NCBI GenBank assembly: GCA_964607485.1 | Contig: CAZSKP010000037.1 | Span: 1-44,222 of the forward strand | Source: an uncultured bacterium | GTDB lineage: Bacteria > Abyssobacteria > SURF-5 | Direction: 5' to 3' | Length of the DNA stretch: 44,222 bases | Shown here: positions 17,935-43,552 of the stretch, piece by piece | Layout of the letters: every line of letters begins with the position of its first letter | Numbering within the stretch: position 1 is the stretch's first letter | The notes under the pieces: generated by a model | Databases searched by the model: none | What the model saw: only the letters and a program-made list of their open reading frames with translations | Told to the model about the DNA's origin: nothing | Translations under genes and position numbers: made by a program

Positions 17935-18268
17935 GCAACAACCTTCACTGCAAAGCCTGCCCTCGACAACGATCGAGGAACACAAAGACCGCAAAGCACC
18001 AAACGGGACACCTAAGGAACACGCGATAACGGCCTCTCCACAGCCTCTCTTCCCGCTTGACTTAGTTGAATGATAGTAGTATCTTGGAATCATCAAGAAC
18101 AATCCGATTTCATATTTCAATGTCCTATTTCCATGCAGAAGATTTGGGTGGACATCAGGTCTTTGAATAGCTCCGGAGGCCAAACAATCAGGTTTAAGTG
18201 GAAGGCGAGAATGTGTTAAGGCAAGATAAGGGCCTCGATTTTGTAGAATTATCCGAGATCGAGTCAGC

Positions 18269-19306
18269 ATGAGTATCTACGACTACAGAGACAGGTCCGC
18301 CTACGAACCCTTGCCCGGTAATCCCGATTACTGCGAGAATAAACACATTTTGTCCTGGTGGACGGACTCACACGACCATCTTCTCTCAAAAGAGATTCAA
18401 GAAAAGCAATGGTCTTGGTACTGGTGTATCACGGACGAAATAGTGTCAATCACGTCACCTGAAGTAATAATTGCATGGAGAAATGCTGACCCTTTGTGCT
18501 CAAGATACGCATGGTATAACGTGCTCATGAACTTCGCGGTTTCTCGTGCAAAATCTCAAGGTCTCACAAAGGCCATTAGGAGGCCCGAGTGGAAGTTGTG
18601 TCCGCTTTGTAATGAAGCCTTTGTAGAAGACTCCCTACCATTCCCGCTTATTCAAAGACTCGGCATTGATAGAATCGATTTCTGCGCACCATGTCTGCGA
18701 GATACCGTCCTTCAAGATTCCGGCAATTATAATGCTTCAAGGAATGATGTATGTTCTTATCTACGAGATTTAGCAGGTGTATTAGAGCGTGTGCCCACAC
18801 AGAATTTCGGCGAAGGCACTCATGATCTCTTTTACCTAAATACACAAGAGAGATTGGCAGTTCTTCAAGTTCTGAGAAAGAAGCCTTCCTTGAGTCAGGT
18901 TAGAAACCTTTTTGGTTCATGGCTGAATGCGCTTATAGAAGCAGGGGTTCTTGAAGATGGGACAAGGAGAACAAGTCGAGGAACAACATGTTTGGCAAGA
19001 GATGGACACACATGCCGATCTCTAGGCGAGAAAACGATAGACGATCTGCTCTTCTCTCTTGGAATCCCTCACGAAAAGGAAATTACGTATCCGGAATCCA
19101 AATTCATCACGGATTTTAATGTTGGCGGTATTTTCATCGAATATTTTGGTCTCGCGGGGGATCCTGATTATGATGCAAAGATTCGCCAGAAAGAGGAATT
19201 ATGCACAGATCATGGTATTAAGTTGATTGCTATTTACTCAAGCGATTTATTAAGTTCATCGAAATTGAAGAGGAAGCTTTTGAGCGGCCTTATCCCATTG
19301 GAATAA
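18269..19306 (+). CDS. AT-rich predicted nuclease: Zn finger + homing-endonuclease-associated repeat + C-terminal PD-(D/E)xK-like domain
   Basis: CPLC...CAPC; LERVPT...FGSWLNALIEAG; DGHTCRSLGEKTIDD...E..YP...TDF...IEYFG...Y...K. Markedly AT-richer than its neighbours. Confidence 0.7.
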   Translation: MSIYDYRDRSAYEPLPGNPDYCENKHILSWWTDSHDHLLSKEIQEKQWSWYWCITDEIVSITSPEVIIAWRNADPLCSRYAWYNVLMNFAVSRAKSQGLTKAIRRPEWKLCPLCNEAFVEDSLPFPLIQRLGIDRIDFCAPCLRDTVLQDSGNYNASRNDVCSYLRDLAGVLERVPTQNFGEGTHDLFYLNTQERLAVLQVLRKKPSLSQVRNLFGSWLNALIEAGVLEDGTRRTSRGTTCLARDGHTCRSLGEKTIDDLLFSLGIPHEKEITYPESKFITDFNVGGIFIEYFGLAGDPDYDAKIRQKEELCTDHGIKLIAIYSSDLLSSSKLKRKLLSGLIPLE

Positions 19307-33481: not shown

Positions 33482-35047
33482 ATGGCGGACACACAAGCAT
33501 CTTTCGCAAACAAATGGATTATCACCTTCACCGTCGTGTTCGGAACCTTCATGGCGGTGATGGACATCAGCGTTGTCAACGTAGCTCTCCCCCACATGAT
33601 GGGCAGCTTCGGGCAGGACATGTCGTCCATCACCTGGGTGGCCACCAGCTACAGCATCGCCGAGATCATCATGGCCACAATGGCGGGATGGTGGAGCACG
33701 GTGCTGGGCCGAAAGCGGCTGTATCTGCTGTCGTTCGGACTGTTCACCCTCGGTTCGATCCTGTGCGGAACCGCCCACTCGTTTTCGCAGATGCTTGCGT
33801 ATCGGATCCTTCAGGGCATCGGCGGCGGGTCTCTGATCCCCGTCTCGCAGGCGATTCTGCGCGAGACGTTTCCGCAGGAAGAACAGGGAATGGCCATGGC
33901 CATGTACGGCATGGGAGTCGTGCTGGCGCCGGGAACGGGGGCCATCCTCGGCGGCTGGCTGACCGACCATTACGGCTGGGCGTGGATATTCTACATTAAT
34001 GTGCCCGTGAGCGTCATCGGCATAATGATGGTCACCGCCTTCGTACACGACCCGCCCTACCTGCGGCGCGGCGTGAAAAGGATCGACTGGCTGGGCATCG
34101 GTCTGCTCGCGGTCGCGCTCACCACCATGCAGGTCGTGCTCGAACGCGGACAGGAGAACAACTGGTTCCAATCGGACATGATCAAGGTCGGCGCGGCGGT
34201 GAGCGTCGTGGCGGTTGCGGCGCTGGTGTTCTGGGAGCTGAAGACCGACGAGCCGGTGGTCAACCTTCGAATGCTCCGAAACATGCCGCTCACAATCGGC
34301 TCGTCGATGGGCGTCATCTTCGGCGTCGCGCTGTTCGGCACCACGTTTCTGCTACCCCAATTCACACAGGAACTGCTCGGCTACCCCGCGTTCAAGTCGG
34401 GGCTGGTGCTGGCGCCGCGGGCGCTGATGCTGCTGCTTGTCATGCCGATTGCCGGCTGGCTTTACAGATACGTGGACGCGCGCGGGCTCATGCTGTTCGG
34501 CATCGGCGTCATCTGGTGGTCGTTCCACGACCTGTCCCGCCTGTCACTGGGGGCCGGATTCTGGAATCTCGTTCCGATACTCGTGATCATGGGCGCCGGC
34601 ATGCCGTTCATGTTCGTCACGCTGACGACCGTGTCGCTGAGCACGGTTTCGCGTCGAGACATGACCGACGCCTCCAGCATTTACACGCTCGCTCGGCGCG
34701 TCGGAGGCAACATCGGCTATGCCGTCGTCGCCACACTGGCCGCGCGCGGCGTTCAGATACATCGCGCGCATCTGGTCACGCACATGAATCTCCTCAACCC
34801 CCACTTCATGGAATTCCGCAGCCGCGTGATGGCATTGCTGGAACAGGCAGGCATGGACCCCGCCACCGCTCAAAAATCCGGCGATGCTCTCCTGAACATG
34901 CTGTTGAACCGCCAGGCCGCGATGCTTTCCTACAATGATATCGCGAGGATATTCGGGATGATGTTCGTGATAGCGGCGCCTCTGATACTCCTGCTGCCGG
35001 GCAGGTCGGGCTTCACCAACAGCTCGAAAACTCCGGGGTCGGAATAG
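33482..35047 (+). CDS. DHA2 (EmrB/QacA) MFS efflux permease
   Basis: MDISVVNVALP, WVATSY, RILQGIGGG, WIFYINVP, VLERGQ..NWF; about 14 TM segments. Confidence 0.93.
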   Translation: MADTQASFANKWIITFTVVFGTFMAVMDISVVNVALPHMMGSFGQDMSSITWVATSYSIAEIIMATMAGWWSTVLGRKRLYLLSFGLFTLGSILCGTAHSFSQMLAYRILQGIGGGSLIPVSQAILRETFPQEEQGMAMAMYGMGVVLAPGTGAILGGWLTDHYGWAWIFYINVPVSVIGIMMVTAFVHDPPYLRRGVKRIDWLGIGLLAVALTTMQVVLERGQENNWFQSDMIKVGAAVSVVAVAALVFWELKTDEPVVNLRMLRNMPLTIGSSMGVIFGVALFGTTFLLPQFTQELLGYPAFKSGLVLAPRALMLLLVMPIAGWLYRYVDARGLMLFGIGVIWWSFHDLSRLSLGAGFWNLVPILVIMGAGMPFMFVTLTTVSLSTVSRRDMTDASSIYTLARRVGGNIGYAVVATLAARGVQIHRAHLVTHMNLLNPHFMEFRSRVMALLEQAGMDPATAQKSGDALLNMLLNRQAAMLSYNDIARIFGMMFVIAAPLILLLPGRSGFTNSSKTPGSE

Positions 35048-35145: not shown

Positions 35146-36702
35146 TTATTTCAGCTTCTTCTTAGTTCTGCTTGACAGCAACTCTTCATAAGCAGTTTTG
35201 GCCTGAATGGATAGTTGTCTATCTATTCCTAAAGATTTTTCGATAAATTCAGTCGCAACTTTCACGGCTTCTCGCCGGTCGTTTCCCTGAAGCAGCTTAG
35301 ATGCTTGATTATACACACCAGCTATTGAGCGATCTCTAGAGGAGTAACATATCGCCTTTCTCAAAGAACTCGGTTCAATTTTAAGCACTCCACTTCCATA
35401 AACCTTTGAGTTAGCCTCTATAGATAGCTGTCCCGGAATCGACAACAGGCTAAGCTGAATCCATTTCTTCTGAGTGGGTGTGATATTCTTAAAGAAGATT
35501 CGATGTATGGAATTTGTGCACAGAATATTCTTGTTGTTCAATACGAGGTAGGGAATCAGTGATACCCTATAAGGAAAAAACGCATCAGGAATATCTCCTG
35601 TCCTCACCATATACCATGGCTCTCGCCGTTGGGAATGAGATCTTAAGTGATACCCTTCAGCTTCTCCATATTCAATATGGTTCTTGAAATGAACTGCGTT
35701 TTGCCTCGTTATCAAGATGAGTTGCCTATCTGGTATGTTGCCGTCTATTGAGAATCCACGAAGCTGTGCGCCATTGGTAAGAATTGGCATTGTTCCATTA
35801 GTGCCAAGGCTCATCGTATTCAGTTCATCTTCATGTTTAATAAAAAAACTGTTGGCGCCGGTAACAACTCCAATAGATACGTTTGCATATTTCCCGAAAT
35901 TATCAAAACCGTATTGCGATTTATATCTCTTCACGACCTCCGAAGAATCATAAGAAAAAGAGAGGCTTACTCGATCTCTTGTAAAGCATTCCTTTGAGAT
36001 ACTGTGATACCTAACATGCTCCGTTAGAGTACTAGCGGTGCCTATGGACAATTTCCTGTTGGGACTTCCGTGCCCTTTCATCCAAACTAGAACCACTCTT
36101 TCCTGAGCATCATTAAATAGATCATTTCCGAGTGCAAGTATCTTTATATCGCGGAACAAACGTGTCAGCCATTTCCTTAGGTCAACTGAATAGTCTGCTT
36201 GCAGAAAAGACCATGGAAGTATCGCGCCAATGCTTCCTTTATTCTTGAGATGAGCCGTCGCTTTAACTATAAAATAAGCCCAAAGGTCAGACGTTCTCTT
36301 AAGAGGGAATATGTCTTCAATCATATTTTGATAATGATCGAGTGTGTCTTTCTTCAGATAGTGATGCCGGACATATGGAGGGTTCATAAGGACGACATCA
36401 AACTTCCCTTTACCCGCATAATCAAGGAAATCGCACTTACTAAGATTTGACGCAGGGAGATGCTGTGTTCGATTGGATAAAGGGGAAAGATCACAGCCGA
36501 ATAGGTTGATTCTCTTCCTTGACTGATGCTTCTCCCTTAGCACCTGCTCAGCAGCAAGGAGTAGTGCTCCCTTACCGAATGCAGGATCAATGATTCTTAG
36601 CTTTGGGCCAGTTATTAAAGGTTCGACTAGCTTTCTTGCTAATAAGGAGGGTGTGTAATAGATCCCATTTCTTCTATTGTCAGGAAGTGCTTTCTTTCCC
36701 AT
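35146..36702 (-). CDS. N6-adenine DNA methyltransferase (gamma-type order; Eco57I/TaqI-like catalytic domain + TRD)
   Basis: GIYYTP (motif X), IDPAFGKGALL (motif I), MNPPY (motif IV), DLWAYF, GVVTGANSFF, YGSGVLKIEP. Confidence 0.9.
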   Translation of the reverse strand: MGKKALPDNRRNGIYYTPSLLARKLVEPLITGPKLRIIDPAFGKGALLLAAEQVLREKHQSRKRINLFGCDLSPLSNRTQHLPASNLSKCDFLDYAGKGKFDVVLMNPPYVRHHYLKKDTLDHYQNMIEDIFPLKRTSDLWAYFIVKATAHLKNKGSIGAILPWSFLQADYSVDLRKWLTRLFRDIKILALGNDLFNDAQERVVLVWMKGHGSPNRKLSIGTASTLTEHVRYHSISKECFTRDRVSLSFSYDSSEVVKRYKSQYGFDNFGKYANVSIGVVTGANSFFIKHEDELNTMSLGTNGTMPILTNGAQLRGFSIDGNIPDRQLILITRQNAVHFKNHIEYGEAEGYHLRSHSQRREPWYMVRTGDIPDAFFPYRVSLIPYLVLNNKNILCTNSIHRIFFKNITPTQKKWIQLSLLSIPGQLSIEANSKVYGSGVLKIEPSSLRKAICYSSRDRSIAGVYNQASKLLQGNDRREAVKVATEFIEKSLGIDRQLSIQAKTAYEELLSSRTKKKLK

Positions 36703-37399
36703 AGCAAAAGTCGGTTGTAAATAGGTATGCTGCTTGATGGTGCCTTTCGAAAAATTTCACGCATTGTTTGTGATACGGCTTTATGAATATTTTCTCATGT
36801 TTAGCTATCACGCCCCTCCACACTGAATCTTCAACAATCTTATGAGTATCCTCGCAACGAAACTCTTTGAATAGTTTATTCAACAGTATTGCAAGAGTCA
36901 TGGGAATTGAATAAATCCTGGGTTGTGAAAGCTCCGGGAATAAGATTTGATTATAGGATTCTTCGTACCCTTTTAGACCACTCGACATCTCTCCGGCATA
37001 CTGGAGGTGAAATATAGGCTTTAAGTATCTTTTGTCACATTTCGCATAATCGAAATGAAATTTCCTTTTGGGAATATATTTCCCCCTTCTATTCTTAGTG
37101 CCTATAAAGAGATAATATGTAATCTGTGAGAAATCATTGACGATTCTTGAGCCAACATGGATACGCAGGTCCCTTCTTGAGCAAGTCACATCAAAAAAAG
37201 ATTCAAAATTGATATTGTGTATCTTAGCCTTCTTACGTGATGATAAGGCATCATATTGAAGCTTTGCTTTGGAACTCAATTGGGGGAATTTCTCTCTGAC
37301 ACGAGGATTTGAAGAGAGGAAGCAAAAAGTGTCTTTTTCACAATCCTTAATTATTGATGAGTCCCTATAAGGACTATCTTGCCAATCATCAATTTTCAT
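36680..37399 (-). CDS. Uncharacterised protein (RKFHFDY...PIFHLQY...PRI; DUF2290-like by eye)
   Basis: 239-aa ORF overlapping both neighbours; the family resemblance is tentative. Confidence 0.7.
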   Translation of the reverse strand: MKIDDWQDSPYRDSSIIKDCEKDTFCFLSSNPRVREKFPQLSSKAKLQYDALSSRKKAKIHNINFESFFDVTCSRRDLRIHVGSRIVNDFSQITYYLFIGTKNRRGKYIPKRKFHFDYAKCDKRYLKPIFHLQYAGEMSSGLKGYEESYNQILFPELSQPRIYSIPMTLAILLNKLFKEFRCEDTHKIVEDSVWRGVIAKHEKIFIKPYHKQCVKFFERHHQAAYLFTTDFCYGKESTS

Positions 37400-38412
37400 T
37401 GAAGAGGTCTCTGCATTCGAATTTCCTCAAAGTACAATGCAGATTCAAAGCGAGGATGAGGCACAGAACAGGAGATATGCAAGGGAACGGCTGTTTTCGC
37501 ATCTTCATCTGTGTAACCTACAATTTCAGGACTCGCCTTTCCACATGCGTGACATTTGCTTCGATCACTTTTCGATATACCATTCAATTTGTATCCAAGA
37601 TTCCAAGGGAGTACTTCATCGCTATCGAGCACCCTAGAAAACACAATCTCCTTTATTACGGATTGCCACCACCTTTGAGATTCTACATCGCTCGGAAATG
37701 AAAATATGCCTTTGTATTTGGCTTTCTCAAAGACTTCTTCAACCTTCTTAAACGCCTCACACTTAATGCCTAGCGTTGTTGCCGTCCAAAGCCTATCGTA
37801 TAGAAATCCAGGCCTTTGCATAACTGTCTGCCTTATCCATTTATAAATATCACTCGGAAGGCTCTTATCCTTGGATGCCATGCTTTCATTCAGTTCTTTA
37901 GGTATAATTCTCTTAATATTATCAACGTCTTCCTTTGGGCTTTTCATTAATGAAATTAACTGACCGGCGTCACGGGGAGGTTTTTCTCGCAATTTTCTAA
38001 ACCCCTCGGCGATGCCCGTTAATAGATATCTCCTCTCAGAGACATCTTCGAATCTAATTATCTCATCATAGACACGTTGCTTGTGGCTATCAATCTCATT
38101 CAATGGCACGTTAGTTATTGAAATAATCGGATAAGGTTTCCAGCCATCATTGTCTCTTAGTAATTCGGTTGCAGTAGAACCGGTGCTTATTATATTCTTA
38201 TCAGATGTGCTGTCAAAACGGTGATCAATAATGAGTAAGTCTGGCTTCTTTCGATTAGCTGCAATTTCTTGCATCTTGTCCATAAGCTTCATTTTGTTAA
38301 CAAGAATAAAGTCGATCTTAACTCCCAGGGCCTTCGCCAGTTCCTTGCTCGCTCTACCTTTCGGGCCATCTTTTTTTTCATCATCAAGCCAGAGGAACGT
38401 CATTCCTTTCAT
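37396..38412 (-). CDS. Receiver-domain protein with an unknown middle domain and C-terminal CxxC/HxxC Zn finger
   Basis: FLWLDDE, LLIIDHRF (phospho-Asp position), ISIT; CHAC...HISC. ATGA overlaps at both ends. Confidence 0.8.
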   Translation of the reverse strand: MKGMTFLWLDDEKKDGPKGRASKELAKALGVKIDFILVNKMKLMDKMQEIAANRKKPDLLIIDHRFDSTSDKNIISTGSTATELLRDNDGWKPYPIISITNVPLNEIDSHKQRVYDEIIRFEDVSERRYLLTGIAEGFRKLREKPPRDAGQLISLMKSPKEDVDNIKRIIPKELNESMASKDKSLPSDIYKWIRQTVMQRPGFLYDRLWTATTLGIKCEAFKKVEEVFEKAKYKGIFSFPSDVESQRWWQSVIKEIVFSRVLDSDEVLPWNLGYKLNGISKSDRSKCHACGKASPEIVGYTDEDAKTAVPLHISCSVPHPRFESALYFEEIRMQRPLQ

Positions 38413-40640
38413 GGCAAATCAATCTCCAAAATGGCTTTCCAGTCTCCTTCTGGGGGCAAGATTCTGATGTCGCCGCTTCTTGCTTGAAGTATTTCTCTTA
38501 CGATGCTAAGTCCAAGTCCGCTGCCAGTCCCGACAATATATTTATCTTCGCGATTCAACTTTTTCTCCAGCCTTGAATAAAGCTTACCGTCAACATCTGC
38601 AATAAAGGGTATGAAAATGTCTCCGTGTTTCTTGGGATTTAGTCCAAAGCCAGTATCCATGAATCGTATGTTCACCTTTCCGTCGGATTTCTTTGCGGAT
38701 ATTTTTATCTTTCTTTCTTTGTCAGCGGCAATAATAGACTTGATCGAGTTGGAAAACAAGTTCAAGAGCACGGCATATAGCTCGGCTTCTAGAATGGGGC
38801 CAACAACCATATTAGGTGGTATTCCGCTCGTATCAACGGTGATACCATAGCTCTCTGCTATAACTCTAAATGCTTTGCTTGCTCCTTCGACTCTATCAAG
38901 AAGGGCTAAGGATTTCGGGGTTTCCTTCCTGCTGTCAACACCAATTAGTGCTGTCATATCCAACAACTCCAGGAGACGTCCCTTTGAAGTTCTCAGCCAA
39001 TCCTGAATATCATCAACCCGATTTCTCTCGGGTCTTGCGAGGTTCTTCTTGATGTTTTCAAGCTGTAACAGACTACCTTCAAGATGACCGAGAAGCATCT
39101 TCACTTCATGCGAGAAAATAAGTATCAGTGTCGAAGTTGAGGCAATGAGTCTGAGGTGTTTTAGCTCCTCTTTGTTAGACTGGTCATGCTTTACGATCGC
39201 GTCGGTTGCTTTATGAACTGCGGTGCTGATTGCCTGACGCTGCTTTGTGGGTAGGGCCGAAGCAATACTTTTGAACTCGTCTCTTAGATAGTCAACAGCA
39301 ACCTCAATGACTTCTTGAGATTCTATTGATTTTTCTACGATTTCCTGAAAATCAGCTCTGCTCGCATCTGCACTTTTCCTTGTTTGCTCCCTGATATAGA
39401 AATCACGGTAAATGGTCGCCCAATCAATAGCGAAGCGAACAAATGTTTTCAATTCTTCAAATTCATCGGAGCGAATAAATCCCTCACGATTTGACTTCAA
39501 TTCAAAACCTTTTGCGCCTTGACCAATTTCAACATTGCCTATGTGGCTCTTCATTGAAAGCAAGCTTAACAATGCACGATCAGGGGCCACACCGAGCAGG
39601 GCATCCGCGAAGGCTTGAAGTTCTTTATCTCTTGGAGGACCTTTTCGACTTCCTCTATCTGCATCTATCTTGAGCCAATCGTCATCGCCATATGGATACA
39701 CTCTAAAACCCTTATAACGAATCTGAATGCCACCCCAATCAGGGAGCATTTCACTTAATGTTCCTTTCGAGAGAATACTAGTATCTCGCATCTGGGGTCG
39801 TTCTGATACCATGATTCCGATTTCCATCTTGATGTCGGAGAGCTTGGGATATTTGCGCTGGGATATAATCTTTTTTCGCCCAATGCCTAAGGCGTCAAGT
39901 TCGCAAACCGCCTTATGGCTTTTATTGATATAGGCTTTCACTGTTCCCCAGCCAGCCTTGATCAAATCAGACCTAAGGTCTCTTACTTCTCCCTCAAACC
40001 CGGGGGCGTCTATGGAAATATTGAAGCCGGGGTCCTCTTCGAATCCTTCGCGCCAAATCCCTCTATTAGCGGCCAGCACTGCAAGCTGTCGTTTCAGATA
40101 GTTATACCCACCGGTTGTCCACTCATCGACTAAGTCGCAAATGATTAACGTAGTTCCTGTGTAGCCGCCTTTCTTGGTATGTTGTTCACCCTGGCAGCTT
40201 ATTTCCGTTACTTTGGTGCCAGGCTTGAAGGCAGCCCAATCGAATAATACTTCCGTCTTTTCATACGTTGACGCCCTCTTGCCCGTTGTTACCAACTTTA
40301 GTTTCTTGCCGAGGCGACGACAACAAAAACGACCGATCCCTTTTGAGCCAGTTTTGGGGCGTCCATATCTAGCGGAAACATCTTGTGACTTCTTAATGGT
40401 GGTGGCAATATGCATCCAATAAGATTGGACTTCCTTGAAGTTCATCCCACTCCCGTCGTCTATGATGCGAATCTCATCAATACCATCATCACCTTCAACA
40501 AACTTGATGGTAACTTGTGTTGCGTCAGCGTCATAGGAATTCTTCACAAGCTCGACGAGGGCATAGTGAACCCTTTCCACAAGGCGTTCGCCAAGCTCCC
40601 CCAGCAGTGCGCTATCCACTGTGAATTTCAGTGTTGCCAT
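38409..40640 (-). CDS. MORC/GHKL ATPase fused to a C-terminal histidine kinase
   Basis: N-terminus has ELVKNSYDADA, IIDDGSGM, GSKGIGRF, GTTL. C-terminus has FSHEVK (H-box), NLFSNSIK, DTGFGL, IFIPF, GSGLGL. No TM segments. Confidence 0.9.
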   Translation of the reverse strand: MATLKFTVDSALLGELGERLVERVHYALVELVKNSYDADATQVTIKFVEGDDGIDEIRIIDDGSGMNFKEVQSYWMHIATTIKKSQDVSARYGRPKTGSKGIGRFCCRRLGKKLKLVTTGKRASTYEKTEVLFDWAAFKPGTKVTEISCQGEQHTKKGGYTGTTLIICDLVDEWTTGGYNYLKRQLAVLAANRGIWREGFEEDPGFNISIDAPGFEGEVRDLRSDLIKAGWGTVKAYINKSHKAVCELDALGIGRKKIISQRKYPKLSDIKMEIGIMVSERPQMRDTSILSKGTLSEMLPDWGGIQIRYKGFRVYPYGDDDWLKIDADRGSRKGPPRDKELQAFADALLGVAPDRALLSLLSMKSHIGNVEIGQGAKGFELKSNREGFIRSDEFEELKTFVRFAIDWATIYRDFYIREQTRKSADASRADFQEIVEKSIESQEVIEVAVDYLRDEFKSIASALPTKQRQAISTAVHKATDAIVKHDQSNKEELKHLRLIASTSTLILIFSHEVKMLLGHLEGSLLQLENIKKNLARPERNRVDDIQDWLRTSKGRLLELLDMTALIGVDSRKETPKSLALLDRVEGASKAFRVIAESYGITVDTSGIPPNMVVGPILEAELYAVLLNLFSNSIKSIIAADKERKIKISAKKSDGKVNIRFMDTGFGLNPKKHGDIFIPFIADVDGKLYSRLEKKLNREDKYIVGTGSGLGLSIVREILQARSGDIRILPPEGDWKAILEIDLP

Positions 40641-40818
40641 AGTATTTTATGACCTTCTGCAAGTGGCACAGTGAACGGAACCCATGTTGTCAACTACAAA
40701 ATACTACCTTCAGTTAACTAAAGTCAAGCGGAAAGAGCCCGGAGTCGGGAACCCAGGATCTTAAGTCCGAAATAATCTTTCGCGGCTTTGCGACTTTGCG
40801 TGCGCAGCGGCTTCATCG

Positions 40819-40855
40819 AAAAAAAATCCCCCACCGAGGGGTGTCGGCGGGGGAT
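40819..40855 (-). terminator. Rho-independent terminator of the etf operon
   Basis: Minus strand reads ATCCCCCGCCGA-CACCCC-TCGGTGGGGGAT followed by a T-run. Confidence 0.85.
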
Positions 40856-40900: not shown

Positions 40901-41887
40901 TTACTGCGCCAGCAGTTTCTTCAATTCTTCGGTCATCACCGGGACGACTTTGAACAGGTCGCCGACGATGCCGTAGTTGGCGATCTTGAAAATGGGCGCG
41001 TCGGGGTCTTTGTTTATTGCGACGATGACCTTCGAGGTCTTCATGCCCGCAAGGTGCTGAATCGAGCCGGATATTCCGGCGGCGATGTACAGCGACGGGT
41101 TGACGACCTTGCCGGTCTGGCCCACCTGGTCGTGGTGGTCGCGCCATCCGGCGTCAACCGCCGCGCGCGACGCTCCGACCGCCGCGCCGAGCAGTTCGGC
41201 CATGTCTTCGAGCAGCTTGAACTGTTCGGGGCCTTTCATGCCGCGTCCGCCCGAGACGATGATGTCGGCCTCGGTGAGTTCGACCTTGCCGCCTGCGCTC
41301 TTGACGATTTCCTTGACGACCGTGCGAAGGTCGGCATCTTCCAGCGCGACGCTGACCTTCTCGACGTCCGCGCTGGCGCCGGCCTGCGGCTCGCCGGGCG
41401 GCAGCACGTTCGGCCTGATGGTGGCCATCTGCGGGTTGTCCTTGCACACGACCGTGGTGATAGCCTTGCCCGCATAGACCGGCCGCGTGAACACGAGCTT
41501 GTTCTCCGCGTTCACCTCGAGGCCGGTGCAGTCGGAGCACATGCCCACTCCGAGCTTCGCCGCCACGGTGGGGGCGAGGTCTTTCCCGACTGACGAGTTG
41601 CCGAACAGCAGCGCGGACGGCTGGTGCTGTTTCACCAGGTCCACGACTACCTTCGCATACGCGTTCGGCGTGTATTTTTCCAGCTTCGCGTCGTCGGCGA
41701 GGTACACCTTCTTCGCGCCCATGGCCGCGAGGTCGTTCGCGAGAGCTTCCACTCCCGACCCTATCAACACGGCCGCGGCGTCTCCGCCCAGCTTCCCGCT
41801 CAGGTCCTTGGAAGCGTTGAGCATCTCGTTGACGACTTTGATGATCTTGCCATCACGTGTTTCAGCAAACACCCATACTCCGCTCAT
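40901..41887 (-). CDS. etfA: Electron transfer flavoprotein alpha subunit
   Basis: VSGGRG, GASRAAVD, QVGQTGK, GISGSIQHLAGM, AINKD. Confidence 0.97.
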   Translation of the reverse strand: MSGVWVFAETRDGKIIKVVNEMLNASKDLSGKLGGDAAAVLIGSGVEALANDLAAMGAKKVYLADDAKLEKYTPNAYAKVVVDLVKQHQPSALLFGNSSVGKDLAPTVAAKLGVGMCSDCTGLEVNAENKLVFTRPVYAGKAITTVVCKDNPQMATIRPNVLPPGEPQAGASADVEKVSVALEDADLRTVVKEIVKSAGGKVELTEADIIVSGGRGMKGPEQFKLLEDMAELLGAAVGASRAAVDAGWRDHHDQVGQTGKVVNPSLYIAAGISGSIQHLAGMKTSKVIVAINKDPDAPIFKIANYGIVGDLFKVVPVMTEELKKLLAQ

Positions 41888-41931
41888 CGTGTCATCTCCT
41901 TGATATATGTAAGAACCGACGATTTCATCTG

Positions 41932-42720
41932 TCAGATTACCTTTGCCTCTTCACGAAGGAGCTTGACGACTTCCTTCGCGGCGTCTTCGGGCTCGCCCTC
42001 GACGACACGGCCCGCGGCCCGTTCGGGAGGCGGCGCCATGGTGAGCACGGTGGCCTTCGCGCCGGCCTGACCAACCTCGTCGGGCGAGGCGTCTATGTCG
42101 GCGGGCGTCTTGGTTTCGAGCGGCTTTTTCTTCGCCTTCATGATTCCCTTGAGCGATGCGTAACGTGGCTCGTTCAGGCCTTTCTGACAGGTGATGACCG
42201 CCGGCAGCGGCGTCTCGACGACTTCCGAGCCGCCCTCGATTTCGCGGTGCGCGACCGCCTTGCCGTCCTGAAGTTCGAGCTTCGTGACGACGGCGACGTG
42301 CGGGATGCCGAGCAGTTCAGCGACGCGCACGCCGACCTGATGGTTGTCGTAGTCGATGGCCTGCTTGCCGCAGAGTATGAGGTCGTATTCCAGTTTCTTC
42401 ACCGCTTTCGCGAGAGCGACCGCGATGGAGTGGGCGTCGCCGCCGAGGAATGCGGCGTCGTTCAGGTGGACGGCCTTGTCGGCGCCCATCGCCAGCCCTG
42501 TGCGGAGCGCCTCCTGGGCCTTATCCCATCCGAGCGAAACGAGGGTGACCTCTCCCTCGCCTTTCGCCTCTTTTATCTTGAGAGCCTCCTCGATCGCGTA
42601 TTCATCGTACGGGTTGATGACGTACGTGACGCCGTCCGTACTGATGGTCGTCTCGCCCGGCTTCACCTGGACCTTCGTTTCGGTGTCGGGCACCTGCTTC
42701 ATCAACACAATGACTTTCAT
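41932..42720 (-). CDS. etfB: Electron transfer flavoprotein beta subunit
   Basis: KQVPDT, NPYDEYAIEEAL, AMGAD, GKQAID, NEPRY. Confidence 0.97.
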   Translation of the reverse strand: MKVIVLMKQVPDTETKVQVKPGETTISTDGVTYVINPYDEYAIEEALKIKEAKGEGEVTLVSLGWDKAQEALRTGLAMGADKAVHLNDAAFLGGDAHSIAVALAKAVKKLEYDLILCGKQAIDYDNHQVGVRVAELLGIPHVAVVTKLELQDGKAVAHREIEGGSEVVETPLPAVITCQKGLNEPRYASLKGIMKAKKKPLETKTPADIDASPDEVGQAGAKATVLTMAPPPERAAGRVVEGEPEDAAKEVVKLLREEAKVI

Positions 42721-42769
42721 TCCGATCCTCCTTCACGCTCTTACCGCACGCGGAAAAGCCTTCGTCCCA

Positions 42770-43552
<783 letters not shown>

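Follow-up and report, generated by a model that had tools for sequence, protein, structure and literature searches.

We identified a conserved, horizontally transferred cassette of four genes in a 44,222-nt stretch of DNA (the window) from an uncultured bacterium of the Abyssobacteria (assembly GCA_964607485.1, contig CAZSKP010000037.1). Its four open reading frames (ORFs), which we call the kinase, receiver, g3, and methylase, encode a predicted ATPase/histidine kinase fusion, a receiver-domain protein, an alpha/beta protein, and an N6-adenine DNA methylase, respectively (Table 1; all positions are those of the whole window). Alignments of homologues showed that the catalytic residues of both ATPase modules, the H-box histidine, and the receiver pocket are all kept, i.e., that the residues of a putative phosphorelay are intact. 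The reading we lean toward, by a little more than even confidence for the reading as a whole and by much less for each single step, is that of a mobile anti-phage or anti-foreign-DNA cassette resembling the Ambrosia system of Pseudomonas aeruginosa, in which a phosphorelay would gate a methylase-linked effector, g3. We infer the defense function and the activity of g3 by analogy.

An earlier, sequence-only reading of the window had described the four genes as co-oriented, interlocked, and AT-rich, and this description was confirmed throughout. ATGA start/stop overlaps, read directly in the sequence, join the kinase to the receiver (38412-38409) and the receiver to g3 (37399-37396), and the ORF coordinates of g3 and the methylase share 23 nt (36680-36702). 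The GC content is 0.39 to 0.44 over 35-40 kb, compared with 0.60 to 0.63 on either side.

The same reading had predicted that the synteny would be conserved among homologues, and we found this from three different anchors. A receiver-anchored scan, with one genome per species, yielded 28 loci in which the kinase-receiver-g3 order was kept wherever the contig permitted. The kinase was present in 27 of them, g3 likewise in 27, and all four genes in 26, the remaining two loci (L010 and L026) lying at a contig edge. An Eco57I-type methylase was adjacent in 26/28 loci, placed downstream on the same strand in 23, downstream on the opposite strand in 2 (L006 and L008), and upstream, as another subtype, in 1 (L020). 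With g3 as the anchor, 5 of 401 Bacteroidia genomes matched, all five with the full arrangement, and two of these five loci belonged to a far more divergent clade (kinase E ~1e-77, g3 E ~1e-14). The middle module of the kinase, used as a third anchor, matched 7 of 401 Gammaproteobacteria; three of these were canonical cassettes and four were other variants of the superfamily, carrying either a C5 methylase and Vsr or an Eco57I methylase. Such conservation of the four-gene synteny indicates that the arrangement is not due to chance.

The carriers were spread over at least seven phyla, namely, Nitrospirota, Thermodesulfobacteriota, Pseudomonadota, Bacteroidota, Acidobacteriota, Binatota, and the window's own small phylum, in which 1 of 11 genomes had the cassette. 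Arcicella gelida DC2W, Lunatimonas salinarum KCTC 42988, and Flagellimonas yonaguniensis, all non-pathogenic, were among the carriers in culture. In the tree of the kinase, the one cassette protein for which a phylogeny was built, well-supported clades mixed phyla. The receiver had a single plasmid match, in Halomicrobium sp. LC1Hm (NZ_CP044130.1; L045, 1918-9448), where an opposite-strand N6 methylase (787 amino acids [aa]) and a YgjP-like metallopeptidase lie upstream, followed by the kinase and the receiver. A g3 homologue is also encoded there (L045:8639-9448, E 1.5e-18) and is absent from the gene table of the plasmid. A tblastn search with g3 gave no match in the plasmid collection, and the receiver had none in the phage collection.

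We scanned the flanks of 14 loci, covering 123 of their 246 flanking ORFs (L015 to L028 were left out, and no background rate was available for comparison). The flanks were unlike each other in every locus examined, and a toxin-antitoxin, integrase, transposase, conjugation, or defense-type gene was found within 6 kb in 10 of the 14. Synteny recovered from three anchors, the patchy spread across phyla, and the variable flanks together point to a self-contained, laterally mobile cassette.

Three loci had notable gene neighbors. Directly upstream of the cassette in L008 (1265-7677) are a SIR2_2 protein, a 1,337-aa ORF that matched no Pfam family, and an AbiV-type HEPN protein, and an IS21 element lies downstream; this setting looks like a defense island. 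In L014 (8143-9583), the methylase is followed on the same strand by an ORF encoding 160 aa and a nuclease of the PDDEXK_1 family (6.6e-8), and in L028 (13219-14098) by two ORFs (152 and 139 aa) that matched no Pfam family. These extra ORFs may be accessory genes of some cassettes.

Consistent with the two complete GHKL motif sets and the H-box previously noticed in gene 1, the kinase matched the Pfam families HATPase_c_3 at residues 24-125 (4.8e-21) and HATPase_c at residues 619-731 (2e-19). It appears to be a soluble sensor kinase, built of an N-terminal MORC/MutL-like GHKL ATPase (residues ~5-187), a middle module (~190-400), a helical linker, an H-box with H511, and an ATP-binding domain (619-731). 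The GHKL residues E30, N34, D37, D61, G63, G65, G98, and G101 were invariant in 25/25 kinase homologues and G103 in 26/26, and the V32-K33-N34 motif was kept in all 25. H511 and E512 of the H-box (F509-S510-H511-E512) and the N/G1/G2 boxes (N627, N631, K634, D662, G664, G666, and G704-G710) were invariant in 28/28. Residues 190-480 were the best-conserved part of the protein, with 62% mean column identity, and K382 of the middle module was invariant in 27/27 homologues. This module, for which a search against PDB sequences gave nothing better than E 0.9, probably acts as a transducer. The best NCBIfam match of the N-terminal 187 residues was the N-terminus of the BbrUII/HgiDII restriction enzymes (1.5e-19; 70 bits, where the cutoff is 550), with MutL-like matches as well, and PADLOC 2.0.0 matched the kinase through its ATPase head only, by restriction-enzyme models (1.6e-12).

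The receiver had no match in Pfam, PADLOC, or NCBIfam, and its assignment comes from its predicted structure and its acidic pocket, both in agreement with what had been read from the sequence. The AlphaFold2 model (mean predicted local distance difference test [pLDDT] score, 94.7) has a receiver fold at residues 2-145, which aligned with 3bre_A (VIA-align Z 15.7, root mean square deviation 2.1, 127 residues aligned) and with RR468 (Foldseek TMt ~0.71). Within the pocket, D11 and D63 (of the IIDH motif) were present in 54/54 receiver homologues, D10 in 53/54, and T/S100 in 54/54, making D63 the putative phospho-acceptor. The C-terminal ~190 residues (146-338) are also conserved, most prominently at W192, PGFLY (201-205), W209, T212, G215, W248, and W249. 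A search against PDB sequences gave nothing for them at E<=10, and the ESM Atlas gave no match that could be used; the structure searches were run with the whole receiver model, and their matches were filled by the receiver domain. The segment LWTATTLGIKCEAFKKVE falls within three short helices predicted by AlphaFold2 at residues 207-231, and its sequence pattern suggests a resemblance to a helix-turn-helix. A zinc finger had also been proposed for this protein: a C287/C290/H312/C315 cluster does exist in the window's receiver, but it is not a conserved feature, since 20 of 54 homologues have it and the others lack it, in each case as a block. It is an optional structural site.

The methylase, previously recognized by its NPPY motif, matched the Pfam families Eco57I (8e-17), N6_Mtase (1.2e-15), and M_Eco57I_C (1.3e-6), and the NPP of this motif was invariant in 26/26 homologues. 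It also matched the PADLOC model MTase_II (PDLC03267) over its full length (6.2e-65). Matches to PglX models were weak and partial (NCBIfam, 9.4e-11; PADLOC, 1.3e-9).

The closest experimentally studied counterpart of this composition is Ambrosia (AbrR-AbrA-AbrB-AbrC-AbrD) of P. aeruginosa, a validated phage defense system (van den Berg et al., bioRxiv 10.1101/2025.09.30.679545). AbrR is a HipB-like XRE regulator, AbrA an N6 methylase, AbrB a kinase/HATPase, AbrC a receiver with a winged-helix output, and AbrD a type IV HNH nuclease. According to the available text of that preprint, all five genes are required, the receiver substitution D60A abolishes defense, infection induces reporters put in place of the methylase or the nuclease, and phage grown in methylase-only cells stays sensitive, so that methylation gives no protection. 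The cassette likewise clusters an N6-adenine methylase, a predicted soluble kinase/HATPase, a receiver, and one further effector-type gene, in the order kinase, receiver, g3, methylase, and its D63 would stand for the key receiver aspartate, D60 in Ambrosia. The reported range of Ambrosia is Gammaproteobacteria, mostly Pseudomonadales (10.1101/2025.09.30.679545), whereas carriers of the cassette come from at least seven bacterial phyla, and a haloarchaeal plasmid has it too. The idea that an effector is switched on by the kinase, with the methylase involved, fits Ambrosia, the only experimental work on such a composition.

In the place of an effector, the cassette has g3. As noted before from the sequence, there is no recognizable restriction endonuclease in the cassette: g3 had no match in Pfam, PADLOC, or NCBIfam, and when Pfam was run on 115 of its relatives, no family appeared in more than 2 of the 115, with no HNH family among those listed. 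The protein is nevertheless far from rare, as a word-index search gave 3 close relatives, but an exhaustive profile search gave 328 representative clusters at E<=1e-3; among the 150 of these that were listed, full-length relatives were ~220-250 aa long. Across the 115 sequences, H115, D117, P160, and P166 were invariant, and E21, T24, R112, H131, Q133, R161, W194, and E202 were nearly so; invariant polar residues form a cluster in g3. The AlphaFold2 model (pLDDT 95.5; predicted template modeling score, 0.92) has four N-terminal helices, a five-stranded antiparallel sheet bearing the FHFDY and FHLQY strands, and C-terminal helices, in this order. Foldseek found no match for it at E<=1e-3 in the PDB (best E 0.17) or in BFVD (best E 8e-3), and VIA-align found none at Z>=5 among 48,161 chains, the best being frataxin (Z 4.8). 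We also considered DUF2290, which was suggested by the ESM Atlas match of rank 10 (score 0.90, the family being on 15% of that cluster), and rejected it; it was not among the families listed for the 115 relatives at E<=1, and hhalign of the g3 profile against one DUF2290 protein, the sole one in 401 genomes and thus a single comparator, gave 0.3%. From its position and the comparison with Ambrosia, we infer that g3 is a candidate effector.

The way in which the four proteins co-vary bears on what g3 might act on. Mean pairwise identity was 54% for the kinase, 40% for the receiver, and 33% for both g3 and the methylase, bimodal in the last case, and the identity of g3 correlated with that of the kinase (0.88), the receiver (0.87), and the methylase (0.73), although kinship inflates such values. 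More telling is locus L020 (5764-11705), where the downstream methylase is missing and a 638-aa methylase with Eco57I and TaqI_C domains lies directly upstream of the kinase. The kinase, receiver, and g3 of this locus were each nearest to those of L014 (76%, 66%, and 53% identity, respectively, with other g3 proteins at 38% to 40%), and L020 is therefore a natural methylase swap. If g3 were a sequence-specific restriction enzyme, one would expect it to have changed along with its methylase, but it has not, and its constancy where the methylase was replaced suits an effector that does not need the sequence specificity of the methylase. The loci with divergent downstream methylases (L009, L011, L016, L017, L019, and L027) form one clade of the kinase tree (100/100), which speaks for co-divergence rather than swapping in these cases. 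Taken with the synteny, these loci showed that the adenine methylase is an obligatory but exchangeable member of the cassette. L020 also has an unrelated LytTR two-component pair after g3.

These observations bear on a rival to the Ambrosia-like reading, a classical type II-like restriction-modification system, in which g3 would be an unconventional sequence-specific endonuclease, the methylase would protect the host, and the kinase and receiver would control the timing of expression like a C protein. The full-length MTase_II match of the methylase and the resemblance of the kinase N-terminus to BbrUII/HgiDII are in keeping with such a system, the lack of family matches seen in g3 is common among restriction endonucleases, and the sister class HEF_HK (see below) is statistically linked to type II systems, as far as the available text of its description goes (PMC8011034). 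We nevertheless consider this explanation unlikely. As a broad family of uniform length, g3 co-varies with the kinase and receiver and not with the methylase, and in the L014/L020 pair it stays with its nearest kin despite the replacement of the methylase together with the recognition domain. Of the four proteins, the 743-aa double-ATPase kinase shows the strongest conservation, which would be odd for a mere timing device, and the Ambrosia methylase did not protect phage DNA in the experiments reported in the available text (10.1101/2025.09.30.679545). For the last reason, and since g3 tracks the kinase and receiver, the former suggestion that the methylase marks self is doubtful. In this respect, both Ambrosia and the cassette are unlike conventional type II systems.

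The cassette is not a named system in PADLOC 2.0.0, as had been supposed, but its novelty is smaller than first thought. Apart from the validation of Ambrosia, an N6-methyladenine (m6A) methylase-kinase-receiver-nuclease system, in 2025, the kinase/receiver class was described computationally in 2021 (Bellieny-Rabelo et al., PMC8011034). In the available text of that computational study, HEF_HK (PF19191) and Response_reg_2 (PF19192) form a soluble two-component-like pair, the kinase has the architecture HATPase_c_3, HEF_HK, HATPase_c, and the type II restriction-modification genes to which the pair is tied statistically are chiefly those for C5 methylases, Vsr, and HNH. The cassette shares with this class a soluble HATPase_c_3-DHp-HATPase_c kinase with an adjoining receiver-like protein and a DNA methylase, and its kinase is, by profile comparison, a clear homologue of HEF_HK-type kinases (hhalign 99.7%, E 8.4e-26 over residues 5-409, with the motifs of the middle module included). 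PF19191 gave no match on the window's kinase and PF19192 none on its receiver at E<=10, and PF19192 also gave no match on cassette receivers of five other genomes, whereas both models recovered their true members (HEF_HK, 5e-20 to 2e-29; Response_reg_2, 1e-19 to 3e-35). HEF_HK loci in three genomes had a C5 methylase followed by a 967- to 998-aa kinase; where the scan reached further, in two loci, a 550- to 563-aa receiver protein came next, and one locus also had Vsr. The class thus combines a 967- to 998-aa kinase, a long receiver protein, and a C5 methylase, whereas the cassette has proteins of 743 and 338 aa, a separate g3, and an N6-adenine methylase.

Two Bacteroidota genomes, G013 (L013 and L056) and G029 (L051 and L055), have the cassette and also a separate cassette of a C5 methylase, a HEF_HK kinase, and a Response_reg_2 protein, with Vsr in G029; the two kinds coexist and do not replace each other. 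Three gammaproteobacterial loci (L069, L070, and L071) hold further variants of the kinase superfamily and encode kinases of 695 to 744 aa that match neither PF19191 nor the cassette closely, flanked by a C5 methylase, with Vsr in two of the three; proteins of 416 to 448 aa without a Pfam match occupy the receiver position, and L071 also has a 272-aa unknown protein.

Another alternative is that the gating is post-translational, as in Detocs, with the phosphorylated receiver binding or releasing g3, or itself acting as the effector through its C-terminal domain, while transcription is unchanged. The receiver and g3 genes are translationally coupled by their ATGA overlap, the two proteins have a pairwise-identity correlation of 0.87, and the receiver protein of the sister class (528 to 581 aa, with no separate g3) is about as long as the cassette's receiver and g3 together (577 aa). 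We examined whether the long Response_reg_2 protein is a fused receiver and g3, and weak colinear hhalign matches were seen between receiver residues 59-120 and g3 residues 74-118 and positions 75-153 and 403-446 of the long receivers. However, neither the hhalign nor the hmmsearch matches were significant, the former giving probabilities of 8.8% and 10.5% with 6 sequences and falling to 0.5% and 1.6% with 72, and we keep the fusion as a lead only. In the C-terminal domain of the receiver, most invariant positions hold an aromatic residue or glycine, suggesting a binding module, and none of the four proteins was matched by a Detocs model of PADLOC. We regard post-translational gating as quite improbable, and a transcriptional output of the receiver is retained in the Ambrosia-like reading.

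Other known systems share parts of this design. In Detocs, a soluble kinase senses infection and passes a phosphate to a receiver that controls an effector, and the cassette shares this kinase-receiver-effector logic; it has a single receiver gene, however, without the buffer receiver and the nucleoside-phosphorylase effector of Detocs, which is not known to include a methylase. BREX type 2/Pgl is a non-classical, methylation-linked defense with a kinase and the Eco57I-like methylase PglX, and it resembles the cassette in coupling an Eco57I-type adenine methylase to a protein kinase. The cassette lacks PglZ, PglY, and the serine/threonine kinase, its methylase has 518 aa compared with ~1,200 aa in BREX/Pgl, and all BREX model scores were far below their cutoffs. 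PADLOC matched the four proteins only with restriction-modification, mad2, and PglX models.

The N-terminal ATPase of the kinase relates the cassette to the MORC and paraMORC operons. Iyer, Abhiman, and Aravind (PMC2292703) described paraMORC ATPases in restriction-modification operons, with fusions to nucleases and TIR domains and with helicase partners. These operons and the cassette, all of them laterally mobile, have in common a DNA methylase beside a protein whose N-terminal GHKL ATPase precedes a conserved module, and GHKL motifs I to III are intact in the cassette kinase as in the MORC/paraMORC ATPases. In those ATPases, an S5-fold transducer domain comes after the GHKL domain; the cassette kinase has there its middle module, with the invariant K382 and no PDB sequence match better than E 0.9. 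MORC-type ATPases fused to histidine kinases and paired with receivers had been taken as established knowledge, but the 2008 article does not serve as a source for this; in its available text, no histidine kinase fusion is described, and the words "receiver" and "two-component" do not occur. Beyond the 2021 and 2025 papers, we did not find the four-gene variant described in the literature, although the supplementary tables of these two papers, which lay outside the search, may list the variant or g3. The cassette was not described in reports on WonAB/VcSduA (PMC12137116) and DefensePredictor (PMC13092281), the eLife 2020 conflict-systems paper, or a BREX survey (PMC12839542).

On the Ambrosia-like reading, the MORC/MutL-like ATPase module of the kinase would sense infection or foreign DNA, by analogy to the MutL and MORC clamps, and drive the autophosphorylation of H511, from which the phosphoryl group would pass to D63 of the receiver. 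The C-terminal domain of the receiver would then switch on g3 and the methylase, most likely transcriptionally, as reported for Ambrosia, and g3 would replace the HNH nuclease as the effector. It may be a metal-dependent hydrolase based on H115, D117, and H131 and directed at DNA with the cassette's own m6A mark, which would explain why g3 has no need to co-vary with the recognition domain of the methylase. A bolder version of this proposal, which we hold to be speculative and improbable as a whole, makes g3 a new fold class of effector, i.e., a metal-dependent enzyme with H115, D117, and H131 on its five-stranded sheet, directed against DNA with the cassette's own m6A mark or another target and released only when the ATPase head clamps foreign DNA and fires the phosphorelay. 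The kinase would be a direct sensor of DNA state, and the kinase-receiver-g3 trio a portable "restriction" module for any adenine methylase, in bacteria and archaea alike.

Several points weigh against the Ambrosia-like reading. The canonical lysine of receiver strand beta5 is not conserved, its column holding E in 15, P in 8, S in 8, Q in 5, K in 4, and R in 3 of the 54 homologues, and the helix-turn-helix reading of the receiver's C-terminal domain, drawn from a sequence pattern and predicted secondary structure, has no fold or family match. By comparison with PDB folds and PADLOC restriction-enzyme models, g3 is unlike any nuclease, and it could instead be a regulator, an adaptor, or a phosphatase. 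The cassette has neither the XRE regulator of Ambrosia (an HTH_3 ORF was upstream in 2/15 related loci, one of them a HigBA antitoxin) nor its HNH nuclease, in whose position stands the 239-aa g3, and the proposed kinship with Ambrosia is argued from matching domain composition and a shared literature class. Finally, the flanks were often housekeeping genes and not defense islands, with no mobile or defense gene around L002, L004, L009, and L011.

The housekeeping nature of many flanks would also agree with a function outside defense, either in a methylation-linked DNA-repair or epigenetic-regulation module made of a MutL-like ATPase and a methylase, or as a purely selfish addiction cassette. 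MutL-like GHKL modules are known to act in methyl-directed repair, and Vsr, a repair nuclease, is frequent in the sister class. However, the sporadic spread across phyla and domains, the low-GC insertion, and the variable sites are typical of mobile defense or selfish elements and not of core repair, and Ambrosia, with the same domain composition, blocks phages, as stated in the available text (10.1101/2025.09.30.679545). We therefore consider a non-defense role highly improbable, and an Ambrosia-like defense remains our preferred explanation.

In the window, the cassette interrupts DNA of higher GC content, with an MFS transporter gene (33482-35047, plus strand) on one side and genes for ETF-alpha, ETF-beta, and an enoyl-CoA hydratase (40901-43552, minus strand) on the other. 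The strong terminator-like hairpin that closes the ETF transcript (Table 1) delimits the inserted low-GC DNA on its upstream side, and no ORF was found in the 260 nt from this terminator to the kinase start. A promoter-like site in this interval (Table 1) is a possible, weakly matching promoter of the cassette; promoter-like sites in the region numbered 12 against 10.5 expected, with no excess. The sequencing runs on record comprised four DNA runs from one study and listed no RNA. We found neither a tRNA nor an integrase in the window, and no flanking direct or inverted repeats marking the ends of the insertion, only short, chance-like ones. None of the other 10 genomes of the phylum had a match to the flanking DNA, so that no empty site was available for comparison.

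Table 1 Features of the four-gene cassette and its upstream edge in the 44,222-nt window
Feature	Positions	Strand	Description
Gene 1, kinase, 743 aa	38409-40640	minus	ORF; predicted MORC/MutL-like GHKL ATPase and histidine kinase
Gene 2, receiver, 338 aa	37396-38412	minus	ORF; receiver domain and C-terminal domain without family match
Gene 3, g3, 239 aa	36680-37399	minus	ORF; alpha/beta protein, no fold match, candidate effector
Gene 4, methylase, 518 aa	35146-36702	minus	ORF; gamma-class Eco57I-type N6-adenine DNA methyltransferase with C-terminal target-recognition domain
Promoter-like site, TTGACT, 18 nt, TATTTT, 9/12	40698-40727	minus	Consensus match only, 58 nt before the kinase start codon
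Terminator-like hairpin, 12 pairs, 8 GC, T-run	40826-40855	minus	Follows the host ETF-alpha gene and ends the ETF transcript

About 200 nt into the receiver ORF, ahead of g3 and the methylase, the minus strand has a perfect sigma-70 consensus at 38189-38216 (TTGACA, 16 nt, TATAAT; 12/12), which could serve the latter two genes as an internal promoter or could be a chance match in AT-rich DNA. A second low-GC patch (18001-19306; 0.448 at 18-19 kb) contains a 345-aa ORF on the plus strand (18269-19306) with a weak match to the homing-endonuclease-associated family HNH_repeat (1.4e-5, 25.8 bits against a cutoff of 26), and this patch may be another small insertion.

Overall, what had been observed in the sequence was confirmed, and its interpretation was partly supported. 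The kinase/receiver class is already known; what is new is g3, a widespread protein with a confident model and no match among solved structures, present where relatives carry an HNH nuclease, and the reach of the cassette across bacterial phyla and into archaea. The coupling of two-component signaling with DNA methylation is a newly recognized way of gating immunity, with Ambrosia as its one tested example, and the present variant is compact, having four genes and no extra repressor. If g3 proved ordinary or the cassette unprotective, it would be one more member of an already predicted class. Being compact, widespread, and present in cultured carriers, with a g3 that matches no solved structure, the cassette is a tractable system for finding out what a MORC-like ATPase-kinase senses, what the methylase would contribute if not self-protection, and what g3 does.

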